Positions 2,376 to 58,275 of a DNA stretch of 64,000 nt are shown piece by piece. This DNA comes from Patescibacteria group bacterium (lineage in GTDB: Bacteria > Patescibacteriota > Patescibacteriia > UBA2591 > CALHIP01), in NCBI GenBank assembly GCA_026417895.1, contig JAOACJ010000014.1, forward strand, positions 63 to 64,062. Direction: 5' to 3'. A program made the translations under genes and the position numbers. Under the pieces are notes generated by a model. The model was not told where the DNA came from, ran no database searches, and saw only the letters and a list, made by a program, of their open reading frames with translations. Positions within the stretch are counted from its first letter, which is position 1; every line of letters begins with the position of its first letter.

Positions 2376-3113
2376 ATGTTTAAATATTTTGTTTTAGGAA
2401 TTTTGCAGGGGATTTTTGAGTGGCTTCCTATTTCAAGCGAGGGGATTGTTTCATTATTCGGTAGTTTTTTAATTAAAGGATTCAATCCCGTTGATATAGC
2501 TCTTTTTTTACATCTTGGCACATTGTTGGCTTGCATTTTTTATTTTTGGAAAGATTTAAAAGAAATTATTTTTTTAAAAAACAAAACAATGTTTCAATTT
2601 TTAGCAATTTCTACTATTGTTTCATTAGCGATTGGCTTTCCTTTATATAAAATAGTGAGAGAGATGGCCTTAGGAAATTTTTTGTTAATATTGGTTGGTT
2701 TTGGTTTACTTTTTACGGCCTATTTTCATCAAAAAAAAGTTTTTTTTGAACTTGATTTTAAAAGGTTAGCTCTCTTGTCTGGTATTTTACAAGGATTAGC
2801 GGTAATTCCTGGACTTTCAAGGTCTGGGGCAACTATTTTTGCTCTTTCCTTTTCTAAATTAAAACCCGATGAAATTTTAAAAATTTCTTATTTGATGTCT
2901 ATTCCAGTAGTGCTCCTTTCCAGCCTTTACTTATTTTTAGAAAACAAAAGTATCATTGTAGAATCTTGGCCAGCCTTAATTTCTAGTTTTATAATAGGCC
3001 TTTTAACTTTAAAAATTTTAATTTCTTTTTCCAAAAAAATAAATTTTTCTAAATTTGCTCTTCTTTTTGCTATTCTTTGTTTTTTGGGTGCGATCATAAA
3101 TTTCATCCTTTAA
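2376..3113 (+). CDS. uppP: undecaprenyl-diphosphatase
   Basis: N-terminus 'ILQGIFEWLPISSEGIVSLFG', 'GLSRSGATI' motif and a multi-TM topology typical of BacA/UppP. Confidence 0.8.
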   Translation: MFKYFVLGILQGIFEWLPISSEGIVSLFGSFLIKGFNPVDIALFLHLGTLLACIFYFWKDLKEIIFLKNKTMFQFLAISTIVSLAIGFPLYKIVREMALGNFLLILVGFGLLFTAYFHQKKVFFELDFKRLALLSGILQGLAVIPGLSRSGATIFALSFSKLKPDEILKISYLMSIPVVLLSSLYLFLENKSIIVESWPALISSFIIGLLTLKILISFSKKINFSKFALLFAILCFLGAIINFIL

Positions 3114-3157
3114 TTTTTTAAAAGAAAGAGTGTAAAAAAAATTAAAAGAAAATTTTT

Positions 3158-3487
3158 ATGCGGATTTGGGATGTGCCAATAGATTGTTTGTGTCGTAATC
3201 ATCTTTTAGGCGAACATAGAGAATTACATGCCATTTGGAATATTTTGATAAAAAAGAAAAAGGGGTTTTCCAAACATCCAGAAACATTAAGGTGGCGAGG
3301 AAAATTAAAGGCTCTTTACCTTAAACACGAAGCAATAGTTAGAGAGATGAAAAAACGAGGTTATCAACATCGATCATCTTTAAATAAAAAATTAGCCAAA
3401 GGTAAAGCTCAGCAATATGAATTTTGGCAGTCCAAGGAAGCACAAAAGATAATTTTAAAAAGAAAGTGTCGGCAGTGCGGAGTCTAA
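3158..3487 (+). CDS. pyrimidine-dimer DNA glycosylase-like (T4 endonuclease V family), short form
   Basis: The N-terminus 'MRIWDVPIDCLCRNHLLGEHRELHAIW' parallels T4 DenV '[28 protein letters not shown]'. The catalytic Glu of the 'REL' motif is conserved. Confidence 0.5.
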   Translation: MRIWDVPIDCLCRNHLLGEHRELHAIWNILIKKKKGFSKHPETLRWRGKLKALYLKHEAIVREMKKRGYQHRSSLNKKLAKGKAQQYEFWQSKEAQKIILKRKCRQCGV

Positions 3488-3505
3488 AAAGTTATCCACA
3501 GGGCT

Positions 3506-3534
3506 AATTTGACAAATAGTTTATTGCGATTAAA
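3506..3534 (+). promoter_or_regulatory. sigma70-like promoter (TTGACA-16-TAAAAT) upstream of the fur-like gene
   Basis: Near-consensus -35 and -10 hexamers with 16-17 nt spacing, read directly from the sequence. Confidence 0.3.
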
Positions 3535-3546
3535 ATCTAAATAGGA

Positions 3547-3924
3547 ATGATTACTAATAAAAAAGAAAAGTTAACCTCGCAAAAAAAATTGATTTTAGAT
3601 TACTTGAGATCAGTTAAGACTCACCCTTCGGCTAAAGAGATTTTTAAGACGATAAGAAAAAAATTGCCTCGCATTAGTTTAAGTACCGTCTATCGAATTT
3701 TAAATAATTTGAAAGAAAAAAATCAAATTTTTGAAATTCCGATTGAGACAAGCCGTTTTGATGGCGACCTTTCTCCTCATGCACATTTTATTTGCCAAAA
3801 GTGTCGGAAAATCTTTGATATTTTTGAAAAATTACCATCTTTAAGAATAAAGAAAATAAAAATTGGTTTCGTAAAAAATTATCAAATTTATTTTTATGGC
3901 CTCTGTCAAAAATGTCAAAAATAA
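3547..3924 (+). CDS. Fur-family transcriptional regulator (PerR-like)
   Basis: Winged-helix N-terminus and two CxxC pairs ('HFICQKC', 'GLCQKCQK'). Sits beside peroxide-stress genes. Confidence 0.75.
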   Translation: MITNKKEKLTSQKKLILDYLRSVKTHPSAKEIFKTIRKKLPRISLSTVYRILNNLKEKNQIFEIPIETSRFDGDLSPHAHFICQKCRKIFDIFEKLPSLRIKKIKIGFVKNYQIYFYGLCQKCQK

Positions 3925-4201
3925 AAATTATTGTTGGGACTGTAAAAAAGAAATTAAGTTTAAGGAAAAAGAGATAAAAAATGGGCGAATGCTGACTTAT
4001 GAAACTGGCAGAGAAAAAGTAACTATTTTTAAATGTAATGATTGTTTTTCAAAAAGCAAGGAATTAAAAAATTTTCAAACCTGCGAAGTTTATTCAAGAG
4101 TCGTTGGTTATTTAAGACCAGTCCAACAATGGAATATTGGTAAGCAAAAAGAATTCGAAGAAAGAAAAGAATTCAATCAAAGGTCGAAAATTAAAAATTA
4201 A
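3896..4201 (+). CDS. stand-alone NrdD C-terminal-like protein (zinc ribbon plus glycyl-radical motif)
   Basis: 'CWDC...CNDC' zinc ribbon followed by 'SRVVGYLRPVQQWNIGKQKEFEERKEF'. This matches the E. coli NrdD C-terminus 'CYEC..CPKCGN..TRRVCGYLGSPDARPFNAGKQEEVKRR', including the radical glycine motif. No catalytic barrel is attached. Confidence 0.55.
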   Translation: MASVKNVKNKNYCWDCKKEIKFKEKEIKNGRMLTYETGREKVTIFKCNDCFSKSKELKNFQTCEVYSRVVGYLRPVQQWNIGKQKEFEERKEFNQRSKIKN

Positions 4202-4221
4202 AAATTAAAAATTAAAAATTT

Positions 4222-4791
4222 ATGCCTATGAAAGATCCATTAACTGTTTCTGATCCTAAACCAGTTAAGAAAGGATCAAAAACTTATGAAAATTTATGGA
4301 AAGCATTTGCTGGCGAGGCGCAGGCAAGAAATAAATATACTTACTTTGCTAAAATTGCTCGAGAACAGGGGATGCACCATATAGCAGGAATTTTTGAAGA
4401 AACCGCCAATCATGAATTAGAGCATGCGAAAATGATCTGGAAATTGTTAGGTGAATGGTCGGAGACAAAGGAAAATTTGAAAAAGGCGATTGAAGGAGAG
4501 AATTACGAGCACACGACAATGTATCCGGAATTTAAAAAAGTAGCCAAAGATGAGGGTTTTGAAGATGCAGTCAAATTTTTCACTGAAGTGGCTGAGGTTG
4601 AGGAACAACATGAAAAAAGATATAAAAGATTGTTGGAAGAATTAGAAAAAGGAATGGTTTTCAAAAAAGAAGAAAAGGTGATGTGGGTTTGTCGAAATTG
4701 TGGCTACCTTCACTGGGGAACCGAGGCGCCAAAAGAATGTCCGAACTGTCGACATCCGCAAAGTTACTTTGAGGTTAGGTGTCAGTATTAA
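4222..4791 (+). CDS. rbr: rubrerythrin with C-terminal rubredoxin-like domain
   Basis: Di-iron ExxH motifs ('EAQARNKY', 'ELEHAKM', 'EVEEQHE') and C-terminal 'CRNCGY...CPNC'. Confidence 0.85.
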
Positions 4792-4801
4792 AGTAAAAAA
4801 T

Positions 4802-5194
4802 ATGGTCCAATTAAAACAGATTTATCGTTGTTCAATTTGCGGCAATGTTGTTGAAGTATTGCATGCTAGTGTTGGCCAATTAGTTTGCTGCGGAAAGCCA
4901 ATGGAACTATTGATAGAGAAAACGAAAGATATAGGAGCAGAGAAGCACGTGCCGATTATTGAAAAGAAAGAGGGTGGAATAAAGGTCAGAGTTGGTTCTA
5001 TTCCTCATCCGATGGAAGAGAAGCACTATCTTGAATGGATAGAATTAGTGGTTGACGGAAAGAGTTTTCGTCAGTTTCTCCATCCCGATCAAAAGGCCGA
5101 AGCTGAATTTTTAGTAAAAGTTGAAGAAGGAAGTAAAATTTTTGCTAGAGAATATTGTAATCTTCACGGTCTTTGGAAGGGGTTTGAGAGTTAG
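4802..5194 (+). CDS. dfx: desulfoferrodoxin / superoxide reductase
   Basis: N-terminal desulforedoxin '[11 protein letters not shown]...CCG' and centre II 'EKHVP...[14 protein letters not shown]'. The ORF-track upstream extension (from 4700) overlaps rbr and is rejected. Confidence 0.8.
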
Positions 5195-5293
5195 TCTTGT
5201 CTTCAAATTAGCCCAGATAATTTATTTTAGGGTGAAAGTTTGATTACTACACTAATTTTTCCTATTTTTTAAAGATGATTTATTTAATATAAA

Positions 5294-5506
5294 ATGAAAG
5301 ATAATATGGGAAAGATTAGTAAAAAAAGAAGAAAATTTTTAATCAAACTTAAGCAAGCAAGAAAAAAGAAAATCAGAAAATTACAGGAGAAATATATACT
5401 TGCTAAAAATGAAACCGAAAGAGAAAAAATAATTGAAAAAGCATTGAAGATAAACCCTTTTTTGACGAGAGAAGAATTTCTTGCTCAAATCGGGCAGAAA
5501 AATTAA
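5294..5506 (+). CDS. hypothetical small lysine-rich protein
   Basis: ORF only. Followed by a terminator. Confidence 0.3.
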   Translation: MKDNMGKISKKRRKFLIKLKQARKKKIRKLQEKYILAKNETEREKIIEKALKINPFLTREEFLAQIGQKN

Positions 5507-5536
5507 GTCGATCTTTCATCAAAGGTTTTATCATAG

Positions 5537-5559
5537 AAGGCTCCGGCCTTTTTGTTTTT
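5537..5559 (+). terminator. rho-independent terminator
   Basis: Hairpin 'aaggc-tccg-gcctt' followed by 'tttgttttt'. Confidence 0.5.
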
Positions 5560-5622
5560 CATATCCAAAAGTTTAATTAAAAATAATATTTTTGATTGAC
5601 GGATTAAACAAAAAATGATAGA

Positions 5623-6780
5623 ATGATTAAAATGGCAAGTAATAATTTAAAAATTTCTGTTGTTTTGCCTTGTTTGAATGAAGAAAAAACCATCGGTGTT
5701 TGTTTGGAAAAAATAAAAAAGGCATTTGAAAAATATCATTTGGATGGCGAGATTATTGTTGTTGACAACGGTTCGACCGATCGGTCAGGAGAGATTGCTA
5801 AAAATTTAGGAGCAATTGTTGTTTTTGAGCCGAAAAGGGGATATGGTAATGCCTATCATCGAGGCATCGCCATGGCCAAAGGTGATTTTATTATTATTGG
5901 TGATGCTGATAATACTTATGATTTCGGCGAAATTGATAAATTTATTGGACCACTGAAAGAAGGTTATGATTTGGTCATAGGTAATCGTTTTTCCGGGTTA
6001 ATGAAAAAAAGAGCGATGGGGTTTTGGTCAAGAATTGGTAACCCAATTTTATCTAGCCTTTTGCGTCTATTTTTTCGAACAAAAATTCATGATGCTCACT
6101 GTGGAATGAGGGCTTTTACTAGAACAGCCTATGATAAATTGAATTTACAAACTACTGGGATGGAGTATGCTTCAGAAATGATTGTCAAAGCCATTTGGCA
6201 AAATTTAAAAATAAAAGAAGTACCGATTACTTATTATCCGCGAGTAGGCGAGTCAAAACTTTCTCCTTGGCGCGATGGTTGGCGTCATTTAAAATTTATG
6301 TTAATTTATGCTCCTAATTGGCTTTTTCTTGGGCCCGGGATATTTTTATTTTCCATTGGCCTGTTTCTTTTAATAGCGATGACTTTTGGTGAATTAAGGA
6401 TTGGCAAAGTAATTTTGCACCTTCATCCGATGTTCTTAGGCGCGCTTTTGGTTTTGCTAGGCTATCAAGTTTTTTCTTTTGGTCTTTTAACTAAACTTTA
6501 CGCTTATTCACAAAAATTAATGCCGCGCAGTAAATTAGTTGATTTTTATCTAAAATATTTTTCTTTGGAAAAATTAATTTTTATTGGTCTGTTATTTTTT
6601 TTTGTCGGCCTAGGTTTAGGCATCTCTGTTTATCTTATTTGGGCGCGCGGTGGTTTTGGGGCTTTGTTTGAAGTGAGAAAATCACTAACCTCGATTACTT
6701 TAATGATTCTGGGAATGCAAATTATTTTTACTGGTTTCTTTTATCATATTTTAAGAATCGGTCTGAAGGGACACGAATAA
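5623..6780 (+). CDS. family 2 glycosyltransferase with C-terminal membrane domain (DPM/GtrB-like)
   Basis: 'ISVVLPCLNEEKTIG', 'VVDNGSTDRS', 'GDAD' DxD-like motif, C-terminal TM helices. Confidence 0.75.
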   Translation: MIKMASNNLKISVVLPCLNEEKTIGVCLEKIKKAFEKYHLDGEIIVVDNGSTDRSGEIAKNLGAIVVFEPKRGYGNAYHRGIAMAKGDFIIIGDADNTYDFGEIDKFIGPLKEGYDLVIGNRFSGLMKKRAMGFWSRIGNPILSSLLRLFFRTKIHDAHCGMRAFTRTAYDKLNLQTTGMEYASEMIVKAIWQNLKIKEVPITYYPRVGESKLSPWRDGWRHLKFMLIYAPNWLFLGPGIFLFSIGLFLLIAMTFGELRIGKVILHLHPMFLGALLVLLGYQVFSFGLLTKLYAYSQKLMPRSKLVDFYLKYFSLEKLIFIGLLFFFVGLGLGISVYLIWARGGFGALFEVRKSLTSITLMILGMQIIFTGFFYHILRIGLKGHE

Positions 6781-7458: not shown

Positions 7459-8286
7459 TTTAAAAAATTAAAAATAGTTATCATCAGTTTTCCTTTTGAA
7501 AAAAACGTCAAGTTATCTTAAAGGTTCAAAACTTGGACCGGAAAAAATTATTGAAACTTCTTCACAAGTTGAATTATGGGATGAAGAATTGTAGTTTGCG
7601 CCTTATCAAATTGGTATTTCTACTCTCAAAATTCAACCATCTAAAGGCCATTTTCAGGCATTAAAGCAATTAGAAAATATTGTTACTAAAATTATTGATG
7701 ATTCTAAGTTGCCCATTGTTTTAGGCGGTGAACATTCAATAACTTTAGGTTCGTTAAAGGCATTGATTAAAAAAACAAAAAAATTAACCATCTGTCAATT
7801 TGATACTCACGCTGACTTAAGAGAAAGTTGGTTGGGCTCAAAATTATCTCATGCGGCAGTCATGCACCGTTGTTTAGAAGTTGATAAAGAAATTAATTTA
7901 GTCCAGATTGGCATCAGAAATATTTCTGAAGAAGAATTGCCGTTTCTTGAAAAGAATAAAAGAAGAATCAAAACTTTTTGGGCTAAAGATAAAAAAATTG
8001 GTCAACTAAAGAAATTATAAAATTTTGTCAAGAAAATATTTTTTTAACTTTTGATTTTGATGTTTTAGATCTTTCCATTATGCCAGCAGTTGGTACACCA
8101 GAATCAAATGGATTAGAATGGAACGAAGTTTTAAGATTATTTAAATCCTTTTCTCAAAAGAGAAAAGTAGTCGGTATTGATTTCGTTGAATTGTGTTCTA
8201 TAAACAAATTAGTGGCACCAGATTTCTTAGCCGCTAAATTGATTTATAAATTTATCTCTTATTTAGTTAAATTTCAACGCCTATGA
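7459..8286 (+). pseudogene. speB: agmatinase/arginase-family (ureohydrolase) gene disrupted by two frameshifts and an in-frame TAG
   Basis: Fragments 'VIISFPFEK', 'KTSSYLKGSKLGPEKIIETSSQVELWDEEL*' (TAG at 7592-7594), 'PIVLGGEHSITLG...FDTHADL' and 'FLTFDFDVLD...MPAVGTPESNGL' lie in three frames. Shifts occur at A-runs near 7500 and 7995. Confidence 0.6.
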
Positions 8287-9341
8287 AGGAACTTAAAAAA
8301 TTTCTTACCAAAAAAGTTAGAGCTATTAAAATTAAAACACCAAAAAAAATTTCTCAGCTTTTAGAAGAAATGAAGAGAACCGGTTTTCAGGGGCGAAAAT
8401 TAGCCGAAGTGACAGAAATTTGGGAGAAAATGATTAAAGACAAAAACGTAACCATTTTCTTTGGCTATACTGGTTCGCTTTCCACTACCGGACAGTGGAA
8501 AATTATTAATTGGTTGATAGAGAATCATTTTATTGATGTCCTTGTTTCTACTGGGGCAAACATTTCTGAGGATATTGTTGGGGCAATGGGAAAGAATTAT
8601 TGGCAAGGCCATCATTTGGTTCAAGATGATTTACTTTTCAAAGTCGGTCTAAATCGTTATTATGACGTTTATGGTCGCGAAGACGATTATCTGGAAATGA
8701 CAGAGTTGATTGCTGATTTTATAATGACACTCAAAGAGAAATATAACTATTCCTCTCGAGAATTTTTATTTCTCTTTGGTCAATGGCTTTGGCAAAAAGG
8801 AATCAAAAGTATTGTTGCCACCGCCGCCAAGAATAAAGTACCGGTTTTTTGTCCGGCTATTGTTGATAGTCCCTATGGTGATGCTGGCCTGCTGGCTAAA
8901 AGTCGAGGCTTTAATCTTATTCTTGACAATATGAAAGATTATTTTGAGTTTATGAAATTAGCTGAGCAGACTAAAGAGACGGCGGTTATCTATATCGGTG
9001 GTGGCGTACCTAAGGACTTTATTCAACTTTTAGCCGTGACAAGTGATCTCTTATATAAAGATAAAAATATTCCTGGTAAAAAGGGCAGGAAACGTCTTTT
9101 AACTAATGAGAGTTATTATCCTCATAAATATGCTATTCAAATTACTACTGATTCGCCGCAATGGGGAGGGCTTTCAGGGGCGACTTTAGACGAAGGTGTT
9201 TCTTGGGGTAAAGAATTACCTGCGGAGGGAAATTATGCCCAATGCTATTGTGACGCAACAATTGCTTTACCAATTATTGCTCAGGCTTTAGCTGAGAGAA
9301 AATTAAAAAGGAAAGGAAGAATTTTAACTTTTGAAGACTAA
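8283..9341 (+). CDS. deoxyhypusine synthase-like protein
   Basis: 'FFGYTGSLSTTGQWKIINWLIENHFIDVLVSTGANISEDIV' is typical of the DHS family. Confidence 0.8.
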   Translation: MKELKKFLTKKVRAIKIKTPKKISQLLEEMKRTGFQGRKLAEVTEIWEKMIKDKNVTIFFGYTGSLSTTGQWKIINWLIENHFIDVLVSTGANISEDIVGAMGKNYWQGHHLVQDDLLFKVGLNRYYDVYGREDDYLEMTELIADFIMTLKEKYNYSSREFLFLFGQWLWQKGIKSIVATAAKNKVPVFCPAIVDSPYGDAGLLAKSRGFNLILDNMKDYFEFMKLAEQTKETAVIYIGGGVPKDFIQLLAVTSDLLYKDKNIPGKKGRKRLLTNESYYPHKYAIQITTDSPQWGGLSGATLDEGVSWGKELPAEGNYAQCYCDATIALPIIAQALAERKLKRKGRILTFED

Positions 9342-10158: not shown

Positions 10159-10402
10159 TAAGATACGAATTGACGAATATATGCGAATGTTACTGATGGC
10201 GAAGGGGTAATATTAACTGGATGCATTGTCTTTTAAAGTAAAATAAAAATAGACAAAAAAGAGTTATAAACTTAATAAAAACTATACTCTTCTTGTCTAA
10301 TTTTTATTATGATAAGATAATCCTATAGACTTATTTTATTTGTATTTAATTTTAATTTATAAGGAATTTGGGTTATTACGAAAATCTACGAAAATACGAA
10401 AG

Positions 10403-11176
10403 ATGCGGCAAGTAATCAAGATTTTTATTATCTTTCTTCTACCCTTTCTTCTCTATTTTCTATTCTTTCTAAGACCATGTTTAGCTTTAGATTCAGATAA
10501 CGATCGGGTGAGTGATGAAGACGAGACAAAGGTTTATTATACTAATCCATTCAACCATGATACCGATGGCGACGGCTATGATGACTATACGGAAATAAAA
10601 AATGGTTATTCGCCACATCAATTAAAATTGAAAATGAGTCAAACAGACCTTGATCAGGATGGTTTAAGTGATAAACAAGAAAGACTATTAGGTACAGATT
10701 TAGGCAATGGTGATACTGATAACGATGGTTATCAAGACGGCGAAGAAATTTTTTCCGGCCACGATCCAAAAAATCCAAAAAGAGGAGCACGGATGAGTGG
10801 GAAAATTATTGAAATCAGTATTCAAGATCAGTTGCTGCGTTATAGAATCGGTAAAGTTATTTTAGGCGAATACAGGGTTTCAACTGGCTCCGTTCGATAT
10901 CCTACGCCTTTAGGTGAATTTTTAATCGATAAAAAAGAAAAAAGGGCTTATTCAAAAAAATGGCGACTTTGGATGCCCTATTTTTTATCAATGAAAAATG
11001 GTTTGTTTGGTATTCATGAATTACCAGAATGGTCAGACGGAAGAAAAGAAGGTGAAAATCATCTCGGGCAAAGAGTTTCTCATGGCTGTATTCGCTTAGG
11101 TGTTGGTCCAGCTAAAAAAATTTATGACTGGGCTGATGTCGGGACAAAAGTTATAATTAAAAAACATTGGCCATAA
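10403..11176 (+). CDS. L,D-transpeptidase (YkuD) with four N-terminal thrombospondin-type-3-like Ca-binding repeats
   Basis: Signal peptide. Repeats 'DSDNDRVSDEDE', 'DTDGDGYDDYTE', 'DLDQDGLSDKQE', 'DTDNDGYQDGEE'. YkuD catalytic 'SHGCIRL'. Confidence 0.75.
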   Translation: MRQVIKIFIIFLLPFLLYFLFFLRPCLALDSDNDRVSDEDETKVYYTNPFNHDTDGDGYDDYTEIKNGYSPHQLKLKMSQTDLDQDGLSDKQERLLGTDLGNGDTDNDGYQDGEEIFSGHDPKNPKRGARMSGKIIEISIQDQLLRYRIGKVILGEYRVSTGSVRYPTPLGEFLIDKKEKRAYSKKWRLWMPYFLSMKNGLFGIHELPEWSDGRKEGENHLGQRVSHGCIRLGVGPAKKIYDWADVGTKVIIKKHWP

Positions 11177-44990: not shown

Positions 44991-47900
44991 ATGAGGAAAA
45001 AAATTTTTAAAATTTTGTTGCCGGGTTTGGTTACTTTAACCCTCATTTTTTCTTTTTTTGAATTTAACCTTCACTCTTTTTTTCTTCAGGCTCAAGAGGC
45101 AATGAAAATTGAAGTACCAATTGAAATGGTTGACTATGGCTTGGCTTCGTCAAGAGAAGCGACTCTTTTTAATCGGACAAAAATCTTTCTTGACCCCAAT
45201 GATTATCAAGCTGATTCAACCAATTACTTTTTTGAAATCGTGGCTATAAATACAGATGAAAGAGAGGGAAGAGTTGTCTTGGTTGATTCTAAGAAGCAAC
45301 CAGTCGCCGAGATTACTGTACCACCCCAGACCAATCAACCAGCCCGTTTTAGAACAAAAGAGCCTTTTAGTTTATCTCAGGATGAATATCTTATTATACT
45401 GGAAGGAACCTCAGCAGAGAATCAACTTCAGGTTTATGCCGCCAGAATTATTATTCAACAAACGAATCCTCAAGTAACAAGAATCCAAATTCCCTTAACC
45501 AGCGGTCCAGATGATAGTTATTCTTTTAAAGAGACAGCAATTGATCAAGTAGAAAGTGGAAATTATATTCAGCCACAACCTCAATTTTACCATCTCTGGT
45601 CCTATCGTTCTCTTGATTGGGTGAGTTTAGCTGAGAGTAATCCTTTTACCTTAGAAGCTGTTTTAGCCGGCGATATTAGTGCTGCACTTTTTGATCAAAA
45701 TAATCAAATAGTTAGTGGTTCAGAAATTTCTGTCTCCAGCCAAACTCCTCTTTTGATGCAAAAAGATTTTACTGATTTAGTTGATGCTACTTATCAGTTA
45801 AAAATTAGAGGTAGAGAAGGCTTAATTTATCGGGCTGCTCTTTATCTGAGATTAACCAATCCAATAGCTTTAGAAATTTATTATCGTTATCAAAGAATGA
45901 GACAGTCTCAGACAGCTGAAATTAGAAGCTATCAAAGAGTGCTTTATGATGCCAGCCAATTTCCTGAGCATCAGATTTATCATGAAGCAACCGGTCAAGG
46001 GCAAAACCTAATGGCTGTCATTTACGACCATAGTCAAAATGAGAGCGGTACTACCAATGGCAACAACATTGAATCTTCAGCTATTAATTTTAACTCATCA
46101 GAGAAAATATTAATGCGGACTTCTCCTTTTTCTCTAACCTCTGGCAACCGCTTTATTTATTCTGTTCTTGGCGAAAGTGGCGATTTAATTTTAACCAGCG
46201 CCTCAATAGTCATTAAAATTGGTCAGCCAAAAATTGACCAGACCCACTATCGCTGGCGCAATGATAATGGTGGAGAATTGGGCGGTAATTTTGAGGTAGT
46301 TACACTTTTGCCCAATGGTAATGGTGACGAAATTACTTGGACCCCTTATCCTAATACTCCCAATCATTATACTTTAGTCGCTGACGAAAGTGATAACTCA
46401 TACGTTTATAAAACCATTCAGACCGATCTGGCCATTTTCCGTTTCGGTCTTAAAGAAAGTAATGGTTCTGTCTCTAGTTTTTCTGTTACTTTGACAGGAG
46501 ATTATGCTGAGTATTCTTATCAATGGAGTGTTAAACCATCAAATGGTCAGCCTTGGACACCTAGCGCGATTAATGATTTACAGATTGGGGTGGCCTATAA
46601 TATACTTGAAGAAATACCAATACCAGGTAAAGGAGAGATACCTGAAGAAAAAGAAGAATTAGAAGAGTCGTTTCATATTGCAGACCTTTCTTTACCTACT
46701 GGTGTTGTCATTGATTATGTTAAAGTCTTTGTCCGGGCTAAAAGGGTCTGTCGTGTAGGTCCTGAATGGCCTCCAACTTATAATTGTACTGCTTTTACGG
46801 CGAAAATGTGGGCAGAGGTTAAGTATTATCCCGGCGCGACCTATAAAGCTGACGAGGATACGCCCGTGACCAATCAAGTAAAAAATAAAAATGTCCGTTT
46901 AAGATTTTCTTTGAAGAATACCGGCTCAGCTCCAGCGGTTAATTATCAATATCGCCTCCAAGTGGCTCCAAAAGGTACGGCTAGTAGTTGCCTAGAAGTG
47001 CCGCCTGAAAATTATACGGATGTGCCAACAGCTGGGAACTGTGGTTCAGCTGTTGCTTGTATGGCTGATTCTTCATATCTTGATGATGGCCAAGCAACAA
47101 CCTGGCAACTGAGTGGGCCGGGTGAAGATTGGACTTGGGCAGACGGTAAAATAGTTGAAAGGCCTTCTAATCAGACATCTCAATTTACTTTAGAAACGAA
47201 ATCTTTTACGGAATTTGAATATAATTTTCAATTCACTAATAATGCTATTGGCGGCGCTACCTACTGTTTTCGGTTATCAAATGCTGGTGAAGGTTTGGAT
47301 AATTATAATCAAATCGCGGCTATTACCTTATTACAAACACTACCATCTTTCCGTCTTAGAGTCTCCACACCCTTAAATTATAAACAGCCCTATAATCATT
47401 CTGAGCCGGCTAAAAATTTTAATGACTCCGCTTCTAATGTGCTTTATTGGAACGGCTCGTCTTGGCTGGTTCAAAACCAACAACCGATTTATCTTATTGG
47501 TTTTAGCGATGGTAGTTTTGAGGGAAATCCGTATGATGAAGAGAATCAAACCGATAACCAGATTAATAGTTCTTCAATAAAAATTGGTCAACAATTTACC
47601 GTGCCAGCTGGAGCAGCAACTCAAAAAGTCATTCAGACTAGCTTTTATCTTAAAAAGACAGGCAACCCACCAGATCTTCTTCTTACTTTAGAAAAAGTTG
47701 GTGGTAGTTCGGTTACAAAAACTATTTCTGCCAATACCGTCTCTAATCAATATGCTTGGGTCGAAGCACCAGCTTTTGATGAAGCCTTTAATTTAGAAGC
47801 CAATGCCACTTACCGCCTTTATCTTTCTTGTGCTGGCTGTAGTGCAAACAATTATTATCAAGTCAAAAGATTAAAAACAATGAGTGGAATCAATAGTCTG

Positions 47901-50309
47901 ACTTATGATGGTGGCATTGATTCAGGATTAATTTATACTACCACAGGTACCTTTGGCAACCCTATAAATAACGAAGATACTCTTTTCCGTCTTAAAGAAT
48001 TTGCTGGCTTTCCAACTACTGGCAATTATATTTCTGCCCAAACATCTACCGGTAGCACAGCTACTACTTATTCTCATCTTGATTGGAAACAAGAAATTCC
48101 GAGCGGTGAAGTTTGTCCCACCGATCCAGTTCGTTTTCAAATTGGCACCGCTAACTTAGTCAGTGGTAGTTGTCCAGCCAGTCCGAATGCCTATTCCTAT
48201 TATGGCCCAAATGGTATCGGTGGTCCAATGTGGTGGTATGAAGAAAACGGTGTTCGTTGGAAAAAACGGCGTTCGATTACTATCAATAATCCCAGTGGTC
48301 AGGAATTAAAAAATTATCAAATTCTGTTGACTATAAATACCGCCGAATTAATCTCGGCTGGCGAATTACAAAGTGATTGCGATGATCTTCGATTTACCAG
48401 TTTATCTGGTGCCAGTCTAAATTATTGGCTCGAATCTGGTTGTAATACCTCTCAAACAAAAATCTGGGTGAAAATTCCTTATCTTCCTGCTACTCCCACC
48501 TCTAACACTACTAAAATTTATCTTTATTACGGCAACGCCAATGCCTCCTCTGCCAGCAACGGCGATGCGACGTTTATTTTCTTTGATGATTTCAACGGCA
48601 CGAGTTTGGATACGAGCAAATGGACAGAGCAAAAAGGTGGGACAACGAGTTTAAGTGTTAATAATGGTCAGATTACTTTTCATCATCCAGCCGTCCAGGG
48701 TAATTATATTTGGATCTATTCTAATAATAAATTTTCTTACCCAGTTTGGCAGGAGGTGAGATGGATTTCTTTTGACATCAGCGATGCCACGCCTCGATTT
48801 GGACAATCAACGACTACCAATTTAAGGACGAATGGTAATTATTATAATAATTATTCTGCTGATGTGGGTTTCAACTCGGCATATAGAATTGTCGGCGACA
48901 ATTCAAATAGTGGTTGGACTGTTTCTTCTACTTCAGTGAGTGGCCAGCGGCCTGAGATTTGGAGTTTTGCCTGGCCAGCCACTGGTTCGCAAATTTTTAG
49001 AAAAAATTACTCTTTACTATTGACCGGCAGTGATAATATAAACACTATCGCCGATTATTATCTTTATTTAGGCATAGCAGAGCGGACGGCAAATCAGACA
49101 GCTGTTGCTGATTGGGTACGTGTCCGTAAGTACGTCTCAGTAGAGCCAACACAGGGAGGATGGGGTGAAGTAGAAACATATAGTCCAGAAGATTATTACG
49201 CCGGCGACCTAAATACCTACTGCCAAAATGTGACCGGTGGTCAATTCTGTTCCCGCGAAATTTGTCCGGATCGACTGGCTGGCTTTCAATATCGCAAAAA
49301 AATTAACTTAACCGGTGCTCAAGGCGCTGGTAATGGCTATCAAGTGAAATTAAAAATTGGCAAAACTTCAGCTGCCATCGGTGAAGATTTTGACCTCAAT
49401 GGTAATGTTCAAGATTCTTTCAATGATATTAGGTTTACTGATGACGATGGTGTGACTTTATTGAATTACTGGATAGAATCAGTGGCTGATAGTGGCGGAA
49501 CGAAATTAGCGACAGTTTGGGTAAAAGTGAATGATAATTTAGATAATAATCAGTCGATTTATATCTATTATGGCAATGCCAATACCTCTTCAGCCAGCAA
49601 TGGTGAAGGTACTTTCGTTCATTTTCAAGATTGGAATAATTCAAATGGCTGGACTTTAAGCAAATCTTCAGTTTCTAATAGTGAACTTTTTCTTGACCCC
49701 GATGGTTTTCAGCCAGCAGCTTCAGCAAGGCGAACCGAGTTGTTGGGGGCAGGCTATGCTTTGCGAAGTCGACTTGACTGGGCTGATGAAGGCGGGCCAT
49801 GGAAAGAACAAGGGTTTGGTTGGGGTGATTTTGATCACTCATACGAATACGGCAATCATCAGGTTCGAAATGGTATTTGGGTAAGATGTTTCTATGGGTC
49901 ACCTTATCCAACTCAGTTTATTACTAAAAAAGACGGCATTGAAACATACACTCAGGTGACTTCTTTTCGGACAGGAGGATACAACACAGTCGAACTTCGT
50001 TGGCCATCTAATACACGAGCAGAGTTTTCTTTAAATGATGATGCGCCGGTTGTTCATACTACTAATATTCCTACTGGTAGTTATTATCAACATCATTGGT
50101 ATCAGTATTTCGGTACCGCTATTCAAAAAGTAGATTGGACTTTAATTCGTAAATATGTTTATCCGGAGCCAGCTATTCAATCAATCGATGCCCAGGAAAT
50201 AGTCTATCCTCATCAGAACCAGCCCTGCCTACGCTACCGATTTTTACTTCTCAACTGTCAAAACAACTCACCAAAAGTTAAGGAAGTCAAAGTCAATTAT
50301 ACACCATAA
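44991..50309 (+). CDS. giant secreted protein (1772 aa) with two DUF2341-like plus LamG/ConA-like modules
   Basis: Signal peptide. Repeated module 'DCDDLRFTS..LNYWLES...KIWVKIPYLP...KIYLYYGNANASSASNG..TFIFFDDFNG' and 'DIRFTDD..LNYWIES...TVWVKVNDNL...IYIYYGNANTSSASNG..TFVHFQDWN'. Confidence 0.55.
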   Translation: MRKKIFKILLPGLVTLTLIFSFFEFNLHSFFLQAQEAMKIEVPIEMVDYGLASSREATLFNRTKIFLDPNDYQADSTNYFFEIVAINTDEREGRVVLVDSKKQPVAEITVPPQTNQPARFRTKEPFSLSQDEYLIILEGTSAENQLQVYAARIIIQQTNPQVTRIQIPLTSGPDDSYSFKETAIDQVESGNYIQPQPQFYHLWSYRSLDWVSLAESNPFTLEAVLAGDISAALFDQNNQIVSGSEISVSSQTPLLMQKDFTDLVDATYQLKIRGREGLIYRAALYLRLTNPIALEIYYRYQRMRQSQTAEIRSYQRVLYDASQFPEHQIYHEATGQGQNLMAVIYDHSQNESGTTNGNNIESSAINFNSSEKILMRTSPFSLTSGNRFIYSVLGESGDLILTSASIVIKIGQPKIDQTHYRWRNDNGGELGGNFEVVTLLPNGNGDEITWTPYPNTPNHYTLVADESDNSYVYKTIQTDLAIFRFGLKESNGSVSSFSVTLTGDYAEYSYQWSVKPSNGQPWTPSAINDLQIGVAYNILEEIPIPGKGEIPEEKEELEESFHIADLSLPTGVVIDYVKVFVRAKRVCRVGPEWPPTYNCTAFTAKMWAEVKYYPGATYKADEDTPVTNQVKNKNVRLRFSLKNTGSAPAVNYQYRLQVAPKGTASSCLEVPPENYTDVPTAGNCGSAVACMADSSYLDDGQATTWQLSGPGEDWTWADGKIVERPSNQTSQFTLETKSFTEFEYNFQFTNNAIGGATYCFRLSNAGEGLDNYNQIAAITLLQTLPSFRLRVSTPLNYKQPYNHSEPAKNFNDSASNVLYWNGSSWLVQNQQPIYLIGFSDGSFEGNPYDEENQTDNQINSSSIKIGQQFTVPAGAATQKVIQTSFYLKKTGNPPDLLLTLEKVGGSSVTKTISANTVSNQYAWVEAPAFDEAFNLEANATYRLYLSCAGCSANNYYQVKRLKTMSGINSLTYDGGIDSGLIYTTTGTFGNPINNEDTLFRLKEFAGFPTTGNYISAQTSTGSTATTYSHLDWKQEIPSGEVCPTDPVRFQIGTANLVSGSCPASPNAYSYYGPNGIGGPMWWYEENGVRWKKRRSITINNPSGQELKNYQILLTINTAELISAGELQSDCDDLRFTSLSGASLNYWLESGCNTSQTKIWVKIPYLPATPTSNTTKIYLYYGNANASSASNGDATFIFFDDFNGTSLDTSKWTEQKGGTTSLSVNNGQITFHHPAVQGNYIWIYSNNKFSYPVWQEVRWISFDISDATPRFGQSTTTNLRTNGNYYNNYSADVGFNSAYRIVGDNSNSGWTVSSTSVSGQRPEIWSFAWPATGSQIFRKNYSLLLTGSDNINTIADYYLYLGIAERTANQTAVADWVRVRKYVSVEPTQGGWGEVETYSPEDYYAGDLNTYCQNVTGGQFCSREICPDRLAGFQYRKKINLTGAQGAGNGYQVKLKIGKTSAAIGEDFDLNGNVQDSFNDIRFTDDDGVTLLNYWIESVADSGGTKLATVWVKVNDNLDNNQSIYIYYGNANTSSASNGEGTFVHFQDWNNSNGWTLSKSSVSNSELFLDPDGFQPAASARRTELLGAGYALRSRLDWADEGGPWKEQGFGWGDFDHSYEYGNHQVRNGIWVRCFYGSPYPTQFITKKDGIETYTQVTSFRTGGYNTVELRWPSNTRAEFSLNDDAPVVHTTNIPTGSYYQHHWYQYFGTAIQKVDWTLIRKYVYPEPAIQSIDAQEIVYPHQNQPCLRYRFLLLNCQNNSPKVKEVKVNYTP

Positions 50310-55020: not shown

Positions 55021-58000
55021 ATGATCAAAGAAGCAATGAAGAAAATTTTATCCTGGTTTTTATCAGGAGTTCTGATTTTTTCAGGATTCTTTGTTGTTTT
55101 GGAAAAACCAGTCAGAGCGGAATGGGCGAATTATGTGGTTATTAGTGAGTTTGCGACCCGCGGTTCAACTAGTGCCTATGATGAGTTTGTTGAATTATAT
55201 AATCCGACTGAAAATATTGTTGATATCAGTGGTTGGAAATTACAATATTGGGGCGGCAGTACCTGGACCACCAAATTAACAATTCCGTCTGGAACAAAAA
55301 TTTTACCCCACCGGTATTATTTAATGTCTTCTTCGTCTCAATATTTTACTACCACAGTTTCTGATCTAACCCATAATTCATATTTGGCTCTGGCTGATGG
55401 CACAGCAGGAGATCCGCGAGGGATCAGAATAATTACTGCTGATAATATGGTAATAGATACAATAATATACGAAGCGGACGGCGGAACTGATAATTCCCTT
55501 GCGGAGGGTGGGAAGACAGCTCCTGCCCCTAATTATCGTGCCAACACTTATAACAGAAGCGTAGAAAGAAAGCCTGGTGGAGAAAGTGGCAACGGACAAG
55601 ATACAAATATCAATGGTCATGATTTTTTTGTAAGAGATCAAAGGGACCCAACGAACTCTCAAGCCTTACCTCGACCACCAATTGAGCAACCACCGTCGTC
55701 GCAACCGCAATGCGGAAACGGTACCTGTGAAACAGGAGAAAGTTCAGAAAACTGTCCCCAAGATTGTCAGTTAAATCAACCAGTTTGCGGTAATAATCTT
55801 AAAGAAGAAAAGGAAGAATGTGACAAGACTGATTTGGCCGGCCAAACTTGTATGACGCTCGGCTTTGTGAGTGGCACTTTAAGCTGTAATAATAATTGTA
55901 CTTTTAATACCTCTCAATGTACTTCTGGCGGTAGCTATCCACCGCCGATAGTTGAACAAGTCAAGCCAGGCGATATTGCTATTAATGAATTTGTTTCTGA
56001 TCCGGTTGATGGTGAAGAGGAGTGGATTGAGCTCTATAATAACACTGACAAAGAAATTGATTTAACAAATTGGCAAATTGAAGAAGGATCGGGGGTACGA
56101 ACAACTTTGTCCGGCACAATTAGTTCAAAGAGTTTTTTTGTTGTTGAAAAAATTAAAGGTTATTTAAACAACTCAGGTGACATTATTATTTTAAGAGGGG
56201 CCAATGGTCGAATTATTGATCAAGTTGTTTATGGCAGTTGGGATGATGGCAATAGAGAAGATAATGCGCCAGCAACCAAAGACCCAAATTCGGTAGCGCG
56301 AGTGGTCGATGGTCAAGATACGGATCGTGACTATTTAGATTTCAAAATTTCCACTTTACCAACAAAAAATGCACCTAATAAATTTGAAGAAGAGAAAGAA
56401 TATCCTTTTGGTGTAATTTTTAACGAACTTTTACCAAATCCTAAGGGCGATGATTCGGAAAATGAATTTATTGAATTAAAAAATCTCAATGATTTTGAAG
56501 TTAATTTAGAAAATTGGCGATTAGAAGACGCCAGTGGGACAAAATTTGTTATTTCTTCACAAAAATTATCTTCGACGAAAATTCCAGGACGTGGCTTTTT
56601 TATCCTTTGGCGTCGGGATTCAAAAATCGCTTTAAATAATTCTGGCAGTGAAAGAGTAAAACTCTATCAACCAAATGATAATTTAGTTGATGAAATCAGC
56701 TACAGCGGGACAGTTGCTGAAGACATTGCCTATGCCAAAGAGGAAACAAAAAATTGGTTTTTGACTACACAACCAACACCAGGACAAGAGAATATTATTA
56801 AGAAGGTTAATCAGAAACCAAAGGCGGTAATCTCGGCACCGAATAAAGCCTTGGTCAACGAAGAAATAATTTTTGATGCTTCTGATTCTTACGATCCAGA
56901 TGGTGATGGTTTAACTTATCTTTGGGATTTTGGTGACCAGACAAGGAGTAACGAGGTGGTGGCTAAACATTTTTATAAAAAAACAGGCAAATTTAATGTC
57001 AAACTTGAAGTTAAGGACAGTCTTGGCGAAAGCGAGGTGGTGAAATTAAGTCTTGAAATTTTACCTAACGAAAAAAAATTTTCTTATAGTCCACTTGAGG
57101 CAGAAATTTTTATCAGCGAATTTTTACCTAATCCAAAAGGGAGAGACGAGGCAGAATGGATAGAAATTTTTAATAATGGCGACAGAGAAGTCGATTTGTC
57201 GGGTTGGTTTTTAGATGACATGGATGGGGGAAGTAAACCGTATCAAATAAAAGAAGGGATAAAAATTTTGCCAGGTGAACATTTACTTTTTGAACGCAAA
57301 GAGACAAAAATTGCTTTAAATAATAATTTTGATTCTGTCAGAATTTTAGATCCAGAAGGAAATTTATTTTTTGAAGTCACCTACGAAAAACCAAAAGAAG
57401 GGTTTTCTTATGCTTTAGATGAAAATAGTGAATGGCGGTGGACATCGCTTTTAACCCCTGGTCAGAAAAATTTATTTAGTAGTGAAGAAGAGATAAAAAC
57501 AAAAAAGTCTTCAGCTAAAATAGCTGGCGAAGGGGAAAAATTTTTAGAAACTCCTTTATCAGAAGTAAGAAATCAAGAGATTGGTGATTTAGTTAAAACC
57601 CAAGGTATTGTTTCGGTTGAACCTGGTATTTTAGGAAAACAAATTTTTTATCTGGCTGGCTCAGGAATCCAAATTTATTCTTATCAGAAAGATTTTCCTT
57701 CTCTTAAACTCGGTGATCAAATTGAAGTAAGAGGTGAATTGGCCGAATATAAAAACGAAACGAGAATTAAAATTGCTTCCAAAGATGACATTAAAATTTT
57801 GGAAAGTAAAACTCCGCCCGAGCCAAAAAAAGTTAAAACTGGCGAGGTTGACGAAAGTTTAGAAGGAAATCTGGTGCTTATTGAAGGACAGTTAATCGAA
57901 TCGAGAACGAATTATTTTTATTTAGATGATGGCTCCGGCGAAGTTAAAGTTTATCTCAAAGCAACAGCCGGTCTTAAAAAACCAAAAATGAAAGAAGGTA

Positions 58001-58275
58001 ATTGGCTAAGGGTTATTGGCATTGTTGGACAGTATGGCGAAGAATATCGACTTTATCCACGCTATCAAAGTGATTTAGAAATAATTCAAAAACCAGAGGA
58101 AGATGTGGTGCTGACAACCGCTTCATTATCTGAAACGAAACCTCTTTTTGAAAGAATTAATCCTTTTTCAAAAAGCAGCCAATCAGAAAAAATCAAATAT
58201 CTTTCTTTAAGTGCTTTAACTTTGTTGATTATTTTAATTAGTCTTTTACTTCGAAGTCGAAGAAAAAAATATTGA
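55021..58275 (+). CDS. cell-surface protein with four lamin-tail-domain repeats, a PKD domain, a C-terminal OB-fold-like domain and a TM anchor
   Basis: Repeats 'VISEFATRGS..DEFVELYNPT', 'INEFVSDPVDGEEEWIELYNNT', 'IFNELLPNPKGDDSENEFIELKNL', 'FISEFLPNPKGRDEAEWIEIFNNG'. PKD 'DASDSYDPDGDGLTYLWDFGD'. C-terminal hydrophobic anchor plus 'RSRRKKY'. Confidence 0.6.
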   Translation: MIKEAMKKILSWFLSGVLIFSGFFVVLEKPVRAEWANYVVISEFATRGSTSAYDEFVELYNPTENIVDISGWKLQYWGGSTWTTKLTIPSGTKILPHRYYLMSSSSQYFTTTVSDLTHNSYLALADGTAGDPRGIRIITADNMVIDTIIYEADGGTDNSLAEGGKTAPAPNYRANTYNRSVERKPGGESGNGQDTNINGHDFFVRDQRDPTNSQALPRPPIEQPPSSQPQCGNGTCETGESSENCPQDCQLNQPVCGNNLKEEKEECDKTDLAGQTCMTLGFVSGTLSCNNNCTFNTSQCTSGGSYPPPIVEQVKPGDIAINEFVSDPVDGEEEWIELYNNTDKEIDLTNWQIEEGSGVRTTLSGTISSKSFFVVEKIKGYLNNSGDIIILRGANGRIIDQVVYGSWDDGNREDNAPATKDPNSVARVVDGQDTDRDYLDFKISTLPTKNAPNKFEEEKEYPFGVIFNELLPNPKGDDSENEFIELKNLNDFEVNLENWRLEDASGTKFVISSQKLSSTKIPGRGFFILWRRDSKIALNNSGSERVKLYQPNDNLVDEISYSGTVAEDIAYAKEETKNWFLTTQPTPGQENIIKKVNQKPKAVISAPNKALVNEEIIFDASDSYDPDGDGLTYLWDFGDQTRSNEVVAKHFYKKTGKFNVKLEVKDSLGESEVVKLSLEILPNEKKFSYSPLEAEIFISEFLPNPKGRDEAEWIEIFNNGDREVDLSGWFLDDMDGGSKPYQIKEGIKILPGEHLLFERKETKIALNNNFDSVRILDPEGNLFFEVTYEKPKEGFSYALDENSEWRWTSLLTPGQKNLFSSEEEIKTKKSSAKIAGEGEKFLETPLSEVRNQEIGDLVKTQGIVSVEPGILGKQIFYLAGSGIQIYSYQKDFPSLKLGDQIEVRGELAEYKNETRIKIASKDDIKILESKTPPEPKKVKTGEVDESLEGNLVLIEGQLIESRTNYFYLDDGSGEVKVYLKATAGLKKPKMKEGNWLRVIGIVGQYGEEYRLYPRYQSDLEIIQKPEEDVVLTTASLSETKPLFERINPFSKSSQSEKIKYLSLSALTLLIILISLLLRSRRKKY

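Follow-up and report, generated by a model that had tools for sequence, protein, structure and literature searches.

A stand-alone glycyl-radical domain related to anaerobic ribonucleotide reductase in a putative Patescibacteria stress operon: a candidate spare part for NrdD

The Mini-NrdD Locus

A 64,000-nt stretch of a Patescibacteria contig (JAOACJ010000014.1, assembly GCA_026417895.1, positions 63 to 64,062; hereafter the window) encodes a small stand-alone protein that resembles the C-terminal end of NrdD, the class III anaerobic ribonucleotide reductase (RNR). The host is a low-GC member of the Patescibacteria (candidate phyla radiation, CPR). The protein, here called the mini, is listed at NCBI as MCX7779039.1 under the label "anaerobic ribonucleoside-triphosphate reductase," and its gene lies among a Fur-family regulator gene (fur), rubrerythrin (Rbr, rbr) and superoxide reductase (SOR, sor) (Table 1). 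An initial annotation of the open reading frames (ORFs) had described it as overlapping the fur stop by 29 nt, with rubrerythrin and SOR downstream. Coordinates and domain matches agree: the first 29 nt of the mini, from its ATG, overlap the 3′ end of fur, and the spacings along fur, mini, rbr and sor are −29, +20 and +10 nt. The evidence below suggests that the mini may serve NrdD as a spare radical domain.

The neighboring genes point to peroxide stress. The Fur protein matches Pfam FUR (1.5e-22), and among NCBIfam models those for PerR rank first (1.8e-28 and 2.2e-26, vs. 6e-15 for Fur), every one of them under its equivalog cut-off. Rubrerythrin scores 226 bits with RuberyRbr (cut-off 200) and also matches Pfam Rubrerythrin and RUBY_RBDX, and SOR reaches 189.8 bits with TIGR00320 (cut-off 146.9). 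Upstream of fur, a putative promoter agrees with 11/12 consensus positions and is the top site within 3100–5700. Its TTGACA...TAAAAT pair stands at the equivalent place in four relatives (L001, L002, L005 and L009); a fifth (L081) has a TTGAC-like stretch only and a sixth (L055) has neither hexamer. The palindrome that follows in the window (TGATTAcTAATAA) is a candidate Fur/PerR operator. The motif AGGAAT[G/T]ATTA[C/T]TAATAA is repeated upstream of fur in L002, L005, L009 and L081, and in L002 and L009 it lies in noncoding DNA in the form TTATTAcTAATAA. Because the spacing is tight and promoter and palindrome recur in relatives, fur, mini, rbr and sor may form one autoregulated peroxide-stress operon.

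A second damage-repair function lies near the fur-mini operon. A pyrimidine-dimer DNA glycosylase (Pfam Pyr_excise, 3e-26) is encoded just upstream in the window (3158–3487), and in L254 such a gene (1597–2037) stands ~1.6 kb upstream with one gene between.

Table 1. Coordinates of features in the window and in compared loci
Feature	Sequence	Coordinates	Strand	Remarks
Mini-NrdD, stand-alone Zn-ribbon and glycyl-radical domain	window	3896..4201	+	101 aa, ATG start
Fur-family regulator, closest to PerR	window	3547..3924	+	125 aa, Pfam FUR and NCBIfam
Rubrerythrin	window	4222..4791	+	189 aa, NCBIfam RuberyRbr and Pfam
Desulfoferrodoxin / superoxide reductase (SOR)	window	4802..5194	+	130 aa, TIGR00320
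Putative sigma-70-like promoter, TTGACA-16 nt-TAAAAT	window	3509..3536	+	upstream of fur/perR-like gene
Candidate Fur/PerR operator, palindrome TGATTA-c-TAATAA	window	3548..3560	.	after −10 box, overlaps fur start codon
Zinc knuckle 1, C13-W-D-C16	window	3932..3943	+	invariant in 37/37 family members
Zinc knuckle 2, C47-N-D-C50	window	4034..4045	+	invariant; aligns with NrdD CPxC knuckle
NrdD-type tail, residues 61–93	window	4076..4174	+	includes R68-V-V-G71-Y72
G71 codon	window	4106–4108	+	predicted glycyl-radical site
Split nrdD	L072	6724–10141		
Split nrdD	L079	7724–10111		
Split nrdD	L074	5835–8114		
Split nrdD	L080	7879–10141		
Split nrdD	L088	7865–10165		
Split nrdD	L050	60–636		
Split nrdD	L089/L090	3947–6153		
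Split nrdD	L091	3971–6174		
Split nrdD	L120, L124, L131, L134–136, L149, L152, L156, L163, L165, L167, L170			
Phage mini loci (IMG/VR)	L173–L209, L211, L223, L227, L239			
Phage mini example	L182	5929–6330		
Phage mini example	L191	5833–6273		
Phage mini example	L195	259–597		
Phage mini example	L203	5998–6258		

The Mini Is Homologous to the C Terminus of NrdD

The similarity of the mini to the NrdD C terminus is confirmed by Pfam, BLASTP and profile–profile comparison. The protein matches Pfam NRDD (PF13597; E = 2.5e-11, 43.4 bits against a gathering threshold of 26.2) at profile positions 521–562 of 562 only, and TIGR02487 at positions 533–580 of 581, the last 48 (42.3 bits vs. a cut-off of 326). 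Residues 61–93 are identical to residues 665–697 of a Patescibacteria NrdD (P0400) at 26/33 positions (79%; BLASTP, E = 1e-17), and across the loop and tail the identity to Patescibacteria NrdD tails is 79–87%. Alignment of the mini family with NrdD C termini (hhalign) gives a probability of 99.9% (E = 3.9e-33) over 53 columns, which start at the second zinc knuckle, include the R-V-V-G-Y loop and reach the C-terminal end; the mini carries an insertion of 7 residues. The homology claimed in the initial annotation is thus highly significant, but it extends over ~55 residues (44–101, the second knuckle plus the tail) rather than the last ~80. Residues 13–43, the first knuckle (C13xxC16) and a 30-residue hairpin, align with NrdD neither by BLASTP nor by profile–profile comparison.

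Both the zinc-ribbon and the glycyl-radical motifs reported earlier are present, in the order C13xxC16 ... C47xxC50, C63, R68-V-V-G71-Y-L...N80.GK83..E86, and the predicted radical Gly is invariant in the family. Four invariant cysteines (13, 16, 47 and 50) precede the Gly loop; the second knuckle aligns with the CPxC of NrdD and the first does not. The R-V-x-G-Y plus N-x-G-K-x-x-E pattern of the NrdD tail recurs in the mini as R68-VV-G71-Y72 ... N80-I-G82-K83-QK-E86.

No catalytic barrel lies nearby, as had been proposed. A tblastn search of the 64-kb window with full NrdD, NrdG and NrdR matched only the tail (4076–4174), and Pfam scans of 20 larger ORFs in the window (298–1772 aa) found neither NRDD nor a radical-SAM activase. 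With 101 residues that cover the last profile positions only, the mini lacks the barrel, the ATP-cone and the Cys loop, and by this predicted domain content it cannot be a reductase. Pfam Gly_radical (PF01228) does not match it either (maximum E 1, although HMMER filters drop most matches above ~0.1). Because there is no Gly_radical/GrcA match, the likeness to GrcA/YfiD drawn in the initial annotation holds for the role and not for the family. Against solved structures, a single-sequence search of the mini gave chance matches only, and a profile search reached T. maritima NrdD no better than at E = 0.5; neither helps with placement.

A Conserved Family Rather than a Gene Fragment

Homologs of the mini are numerous and uniform in length. 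Collection scans list the best matches only, so that frequencies given here and below are rough. Among 5.8 billion proteins we find 641 clusters at 90% identity. Nearly all of the best 120 are 91–117 aa long and 54–74% identical to the mini, with P0027 (171 aa) the only exception in length, and all those with an organism name are Patescibacteria. A profile search of 1.84 billion 50%-identity representatives returned 417 matches at E < 1e-10, and the top 150 comprise 114 Zn-ribbon minis, 27 tail-only proteins or fragments and 2 full-length NrdDs. The family spans ~80–150 aa, and Pfam, NCBIfam and PHROGs hold no dedicated model for Zn-ribbon minis. In an unfiltered alignment of 37 sequences C13, C16, C47, C50, C63, G71, Y72, R74, P75, W79, G82 and K83 are invariant, and R68 (Lys in P0010), N80 and E86 are nearly so. 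Compared with L009, the closest relative for which DNA is available, the ratio of nonsynonymous to synonymous substitution rates (dN/dS) is 0.11 for the mini vs. 0.20 for the adjacent fur.

These data rule out the fallback offered in the initial annotation, in which the ORF is what remains of an nrdD since lost or the 3′ part of an nrdD pseudogene left by rearrangement. The plain reductase label at NCBI is what a fragment would receive. However, the 641 clusters and the 114 minis among 150 representatives, hundreds of them intact and of the same length, the invariant Cys4 and Gly and other functional residues, the dN/dS of 0.11 and the conserved synteny leave a nonfunctional piece with a negligible probability, and the zinc ribbon of the mini is of its own design, no copy of that of NrdD.

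Genomic Settings of the Family

Minis occur in four genomic settings, which tie the family independently to class III RNR genes and to oxidative-stress genes. In the first, found in Patescibacteria (the window, L001, L002-4, L005, L009, L254 and L255), the gene order is Fur/PerR-mini-(Prx)-Rbr-SOR or Fur-mini-cupin-EncFtn-FeSOD (iron superoxide dismutase, Fe-SOD), and the Fur-mini overlap is always 29–32 nt. Two further loci (L055 and L081) have the Fur-mini adjacency with downstream stress genes not seen, and in another (L029) Rbr comes after the mini and no Fur was called; conservation of the small ORF beside fur and rbr, which the initial annotation had left to be checked, is seen in many relatives. 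In the second setting, also in Patescibacteria, the mini stands between an intact nrdD (ATP-cone plus Pfam NRDD 1–562) and nrdG. This order is present in seven loci from ~five distinct lineages (L013, L021, L076, L077, L092, L123 and L125); L076 and L077 also have nrdR upstream. The third setting is in Desulfobacterota, where a longer subfamily carries an N-terminal helix: a reverse rubrerythrin precedes the mini in L041, and in L073 the mini lies between an Rrf2 regulator and rubrerythrin. The oxidative-stress link is therefore found independently in two phyla, Patescibacteria and Desulfobacterota.

The fourth setting is tailed phages. Of the 80 top-ranking IMG/VR loci, approximately 40–45 have a gene for a Zn-ribbon mini, or 39 when the motif filter is tightened (Table 1), and its neighbors, confirmed with PHROGs, are terminase, portal, head and tail-sheath genes. 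BLAST comparison with Patescibacteria reference proteins found no NrdD or NrdG within 6 kb of the phage minis, no PHROGs family matches the phage minis, and INPHARED phage genomes gave two partial matches only.

Proximity to the regulator raises the possibility that the mini senses O2 or redox state, or works as a PerR partner. It would then be a zinc-ribbon protein translationally coupled to PerR and with no role inside NrdD, and would respond either by releasing zinc when its thiols are oxidized or by cleaving itself at a glycyl radical in the presence of O2. Consistent with this, the 29–32 nt overlap is kept across relatives, and one assembly has a Fur-mini fusion call (P0027; L005 3152–3797). 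We rejected that fusion, which arises from single-base frameshifts in A-runs of the ENA assembly and most likely reflects faulty assembly, not programmed frameshifting. Many family members moreover have no fur neighbor (those of the nrdD-mini-nrdG operons, the phage copies, L018 and L038), and a role confined to PerR leaves the near-identity to the NrdD tail over 31 residues unexplained. We therefore regard a sensor as quite improbable.

Complete NrdD Coexists with the Mini in Relatives

In relatives the mini is an extra tail and does not complete a split gene, because two of them with the PerR-type operon also carry, ~90–110 kb away, an intact 705-aa nrdD and nrdG. Both come from one sample, are near-complete and represent related organisms. 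Ga0527077_0027 (695,565 bp) has nrdD (705 aa)-nrdG-metK (S-adenosylmethionine [AdoMet] synthase) at 4.7–18.9 kb and PerR-mini-Prx-Rbr-SOR at 588–608 kb. Its mini (P0010) is 72% identical to that of the window, and its operon is alike. Its NrdD, P0400, came from a query with a Patescibacteria NrdD free of inteins and has both a zinc site, CPVH...CPKC, and a tail, CEVYSRIVGYYRPVQQWNLGKQQEFKQRKEF, of its own. In Ga0527077_0059 (459,396 bp) the nrdD-nrdG locus and the PerR-mini operon are ~90 kb apart. Together with the seven nrdD-mini-nrdG loci, a Zn-ribbon mini is accompanied by intact nrdD and nrdG in 9/9 cases where the genome or locus could be inspected. The search for a full nrdD and nrdG that the initial annotation had called for is in this way positive in relatives, and a complete parent enzyme and activase elsewhere in the genome are what a spare copy predicts. 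An anticorrelation of mini and nrdD across genomes was considered and dropped; genomes with two loci were unseen, but only the best 80 of at least 600 matches were covered.

Two further features of nrdD loci were noted. In two Patescibacteria genomes (L172 6001–10024 and L253 3001–7024) nrdD-nrdG is directly followed by an archaeal-type AdoMet synthase (PF01941), a source of the activase co-substrate, with enolase and phosphoglycerate mutase upstream. Many Patescibacteria and archaeal nrdD genes contain one or more LAGLIDADG-type inteins, which extend the ORF to as much as ~2600 residues (P0261, residues 411–813; L036, L039 and L051, with NrdD ORFs of 1486–1663 aa; L049, 2618 aa).

Naturally Split nrdD Genes

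The radical tail of NrdD can apparently be supplied in trans as a free polypeptide, because naturally split nrdD genes are common. In these a barrel-plus-zinc ORF, which stops ~20–50 residues past the zinc site, is followed by a 45–65 aa tail ORF with its own Shine–Dalgarno sequence and ATG and then by nrdG; the tail ORF encodes ...CEVYSRVVGY...NxGK..E. Hosts include Anaerolineae, Thermodesulfobacterium, Aquificales, Leptospiraceae, Hippea, Patescibacteria and high-GC contigs. About 16/80 loci fetched with an NrdD barrel-end probe are split (Table 1), and one search returned 1125 tail-only ORFs; its 51-residue probe carried an EEFRWRREYR...LP.EKIPSKK extension, and it returned tail-only ORFs only. 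We found no description of split nrdD genes in the papers searched. Their frequency suggests that the radical tail is a separable module, useful for engineering and for mechanistic work by electron paramagnetic resonance (EPR).

One possibility is that the mini is an obligate second subunit, the only tail, or "replaceable fuse," of an NrdD without a radical domain of its own. The abundance of split genes and tail-only ORFs is compatible with this, as is the lack of a sighting of the host's own nrdD in the 64-kb window scanned. However, each split tail ORF lacks a zinc ribbon and directly follows its barrel gene. Among the 80 barrel-end loci we found no barrel-only nrdD without an adjoining tail ORF: ~16 ended early, and those examined had one. 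Of eight early-ending genes (L134, L135, L141, L144, L151, L165, L167 and L170), six have an adjoining tail with a variant motif, e.g., CEVWTRVMGYHRPV; in L141, L144 and L151, the second of these a 1.5-kb contig, no tail ORF was resolved. The lack of a remote barrel-only nrdD among these loci argues against an obligate remote subunit for the window. So does the pairing of Zn-ribbon minis with intact nrdD in every visible case, and an essential part controlled by a stress repressor and encoded at a distance from nrdD and nrdG would be odd. An obligate subunit is accordingly a very remote prospect.

Apparent Concerted Evolution of Minis with Adjacent NrdD

In the four nrdD-mini-nrdG operons tested, the mini appears to evolve in concert with the adjacent NrdD. 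In L013, L021, L076 and L077 the mini tail is closest to that of its own adjacent NrdD among 160 distinct NrdD tails, with two other tails tying in the case of L013. Tail segments of nrdD and mini share 60 nt at 100% identity in L013 (10010–10117 vs. 10333–10440) and 87/108 nt in L021 (10010 vs. 10320), which points to gene conversion. In L076 and L077, 27/36 residues are kept between mini and NrdD tail with only 12–14 identical codons, which points to purifying selection.

A lineage-specific C-terminal extension, EEF[RK]WRREYR..(K)L..LP.EKIPSKK, is found both in some minis (P0015, P0023, P0055 and P0067) and in some full NrdDs (L039, L043, L054 and L094). A probe based on it did not recover the minis and NrdDs of that lineage.

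A Candidate Spare Radical Domain

O2 cuts active NrdD at the radical Gly, as seen for the E. coli and T4 enzymes; the last 25–31 residues are lost (~25 in T4, ~31 in E. coli) and an enzyme of ~700 residues is killed. To our knowledge, glycyl-radical enzymes are all destroyed by O2 in like manner. On balance we lean toward the interpretation that the mini is a GrcA/YfiD-like autonomous spare glycyl-radical domain for class III NrdD, induced on oxidative stress. The initial annotation had suggested such a rescue module, and family conservation and gene context support it as a reading of function. Peroxide or O2 would inactivate the PerR-like repressor and derepress perR-mini-rbr-sor, so that the 101-residue mini would be made along with enzymes that remove H2O2 and superoxide. 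The protein appears to hold all parts recognized by the activase, namely the Cys4 zinc ribbon, the R-V-V-G-Y loop and the C-terminal helix. When conditions become reducing again, NrdG and AdoMet would install a radical on G71, and the radical-bearing tail would dock in the damaged NrdD barrel in place of the lost piece, a step for which split genes offer support. Docking would restore the radical relay from Gly to Cys, and the cell would spend one seventh of what a new NrdD costs. Speculatively, the additional first knuckle and hairpin may anchor the mini to a barrel whose own zinc domain is still in place.

The same features could suit a sacrificial decoy or radical buffer, in which the mini competes for NrdG and takes the radical and the O2 cleavage, or holds NrdG inactive, and so protects NrdD rather than repairing it. 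Placement in a PerR operon with Rbr and SOR implies that the mini is made when O2 or peroxide is present, each feature of an activase substrate is kept, and the resident NrdD of relatives is intact, all of which a decoy would share. Yet a decoy needs to fit the activase only, whereas the tail past the Gly is as strictly conserved as in NrdD; because the C-terminal helix is conserved, docking in the barrel is suggested. In nrdD-mini-nrdG operons, moreover, the mini would be co-expressed with the enzyme and not with stress genes, and split nrdD genes speak for productive tail docking. We consider a decoy unlikely.

Several observations weigh against a spare domain. Neither nrdD nor nrdG of the window's own host is on its contig (tblastn, 64 kb). 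The AlphaFold2 model of the mini, built from the 37-sequence alignment, has a predicted local distance difference test score (pLDDT) of 65 with the Gly loop below 50 and lends no structural support, and Foldseek of this model against PDB found nothing below E = 0.7. In the distant PerR-type pairs the mini is identical to its own NrdD at 26–27/31 positions and that NrdD ranks only 21 of 160, with no special covariation. In NrdD cleaved by O2 the zinc domain is still present together with a stump of the Gly loop, and the mini would need to displace or flank them; the first knuckle and hairpin of the mini have no NrdD counterpart. Expression during O2 exposure fits a decoy or a sensor as well as repair, and radical installation, binding and rescue are all deduced from sequence.

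The wider claim seems to us evenly poised. It would make the minis a widespread, undescribed spare-part family of Patescibacteria, Desulfobacterota and tailed phages, with the protein of the window as founding member and wired there to PerR. After an oxygen pulse, an anaerobe with a minimal genome would re-arm the only enzyme that supplies its deoxynucleoside triphosphates (dNTPs) through a 100-residue swap, with no need to rebuild 700 residues, and phage copies would sustain the host reductase.

Significance

Pyruvate formate-lyase (PFL) is the only enzyme for which repair by a spare radical domain has been demonstrated, with YfiD/GrcA and T4 Y06I as the spare parts, and the mini family provides a concrete test object, with cognate NrdD and NrdG available from contigs that carry a mini. 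If the spare-domain interpretation is true, it would explain DNA synthesis through oxygen pulses in strictly fermentative anaerobes with minimal genomes, and it would give phages a route to sustain the dNTP supply of their hosts. For annotation, hundreds of entries named "anaerobic ribonucleoside-triphosphate reductase" cannot, as predicted here, be reductases. Andorfer et al. (2021; PMC8683613) regard only YfiD and Y06I as validated spare parts and consider others for glycyl-radical enzymes possible, and a June 2026 review describes spare-part proteins as unknown outside formate-lyases. NrdD is cited in PMC5906684 only as an example of a zinc-ribbon fold. We found neither a described NrdD spare part nor a stand-alone NrdD domain in the literature searched. 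Apart from the control of grcA, the properties of GrcA compared below are from PMC8683613 and PMC13450708.

Other Features of the Window

Two codirectional short ORFs (7709–8020 and 8080–8286) lie just upstream of a 352-aa ORF (8283–9341). On visual inspection they resemble the two halves of an arginase/agmatinase-type gene, which could be frameshifted or split, and the 352-aa product looks deoxyhypusine-synthase-like. Two long ORFs unrelated to the mini encode 1772 aa with DUF2341 repeats (44991–50309) and 1084 aa with four lamin-tail domains and PKD (55021–58275); from their domain types we guess that these may be surface proteins.

Comparison with Known Systems

The tail ORFs of split nrdD genes resemble the mini in being separate small polypeptides with CEVYSRVVGY...NxGK..E that must act in trans with an NrdD barrel and NrdG. 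They are 42–90 aa long without a zinc ribbon and are the sole tail of the locus, in all cases with a tail-less barrel gene before them and nrdG after, whereas the mini of the window has a Cys4 ribbon, sits in a stress operon and in relatives coexists with a complete NrdD. It neither follows a tail-less barrel gene nor precedes nrdG.

With the C-terminal domain of NrdD itself (PF13597; structures from T4, T. maritima and P. copri) the mini shares the second knuckle, the R-V-x-G-Y loop and the C-terminal helix. It differs in its first knuckle, C[H/W]DC followed by a 30-residue hairpin where NrdD has CPxH and ~9 residues, and in the 7-residue insertion, which precedes CEVYSR.

The closest parallels in role are GrcA/YfiD and T4 Y06I. 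Like the mini, these are small stand-alone copies of a C-terminal radical domain whose parent enzyme is encoded elsewhere in the genome, with a tail near that of the parent, an extra N-terminal part without a parental counterpart and stress-type regulation apart from the enzyme gene; phage copies exist in both cases (Y06I, the phage GrcA, and the minis of tailed phages). The parent of the mini would be NrdD and not PFL, and the mini falls outside PF01228. Its N-terminal part is a Cys4 zinc ribbon in place of the disordered N terminus of GrcA. The regulator is PerR-like, whereas control of grcA is of the FNR/ArcA/PdhR type. Rescue has been shown for GrcA, and for the mini we infer it from sequence.

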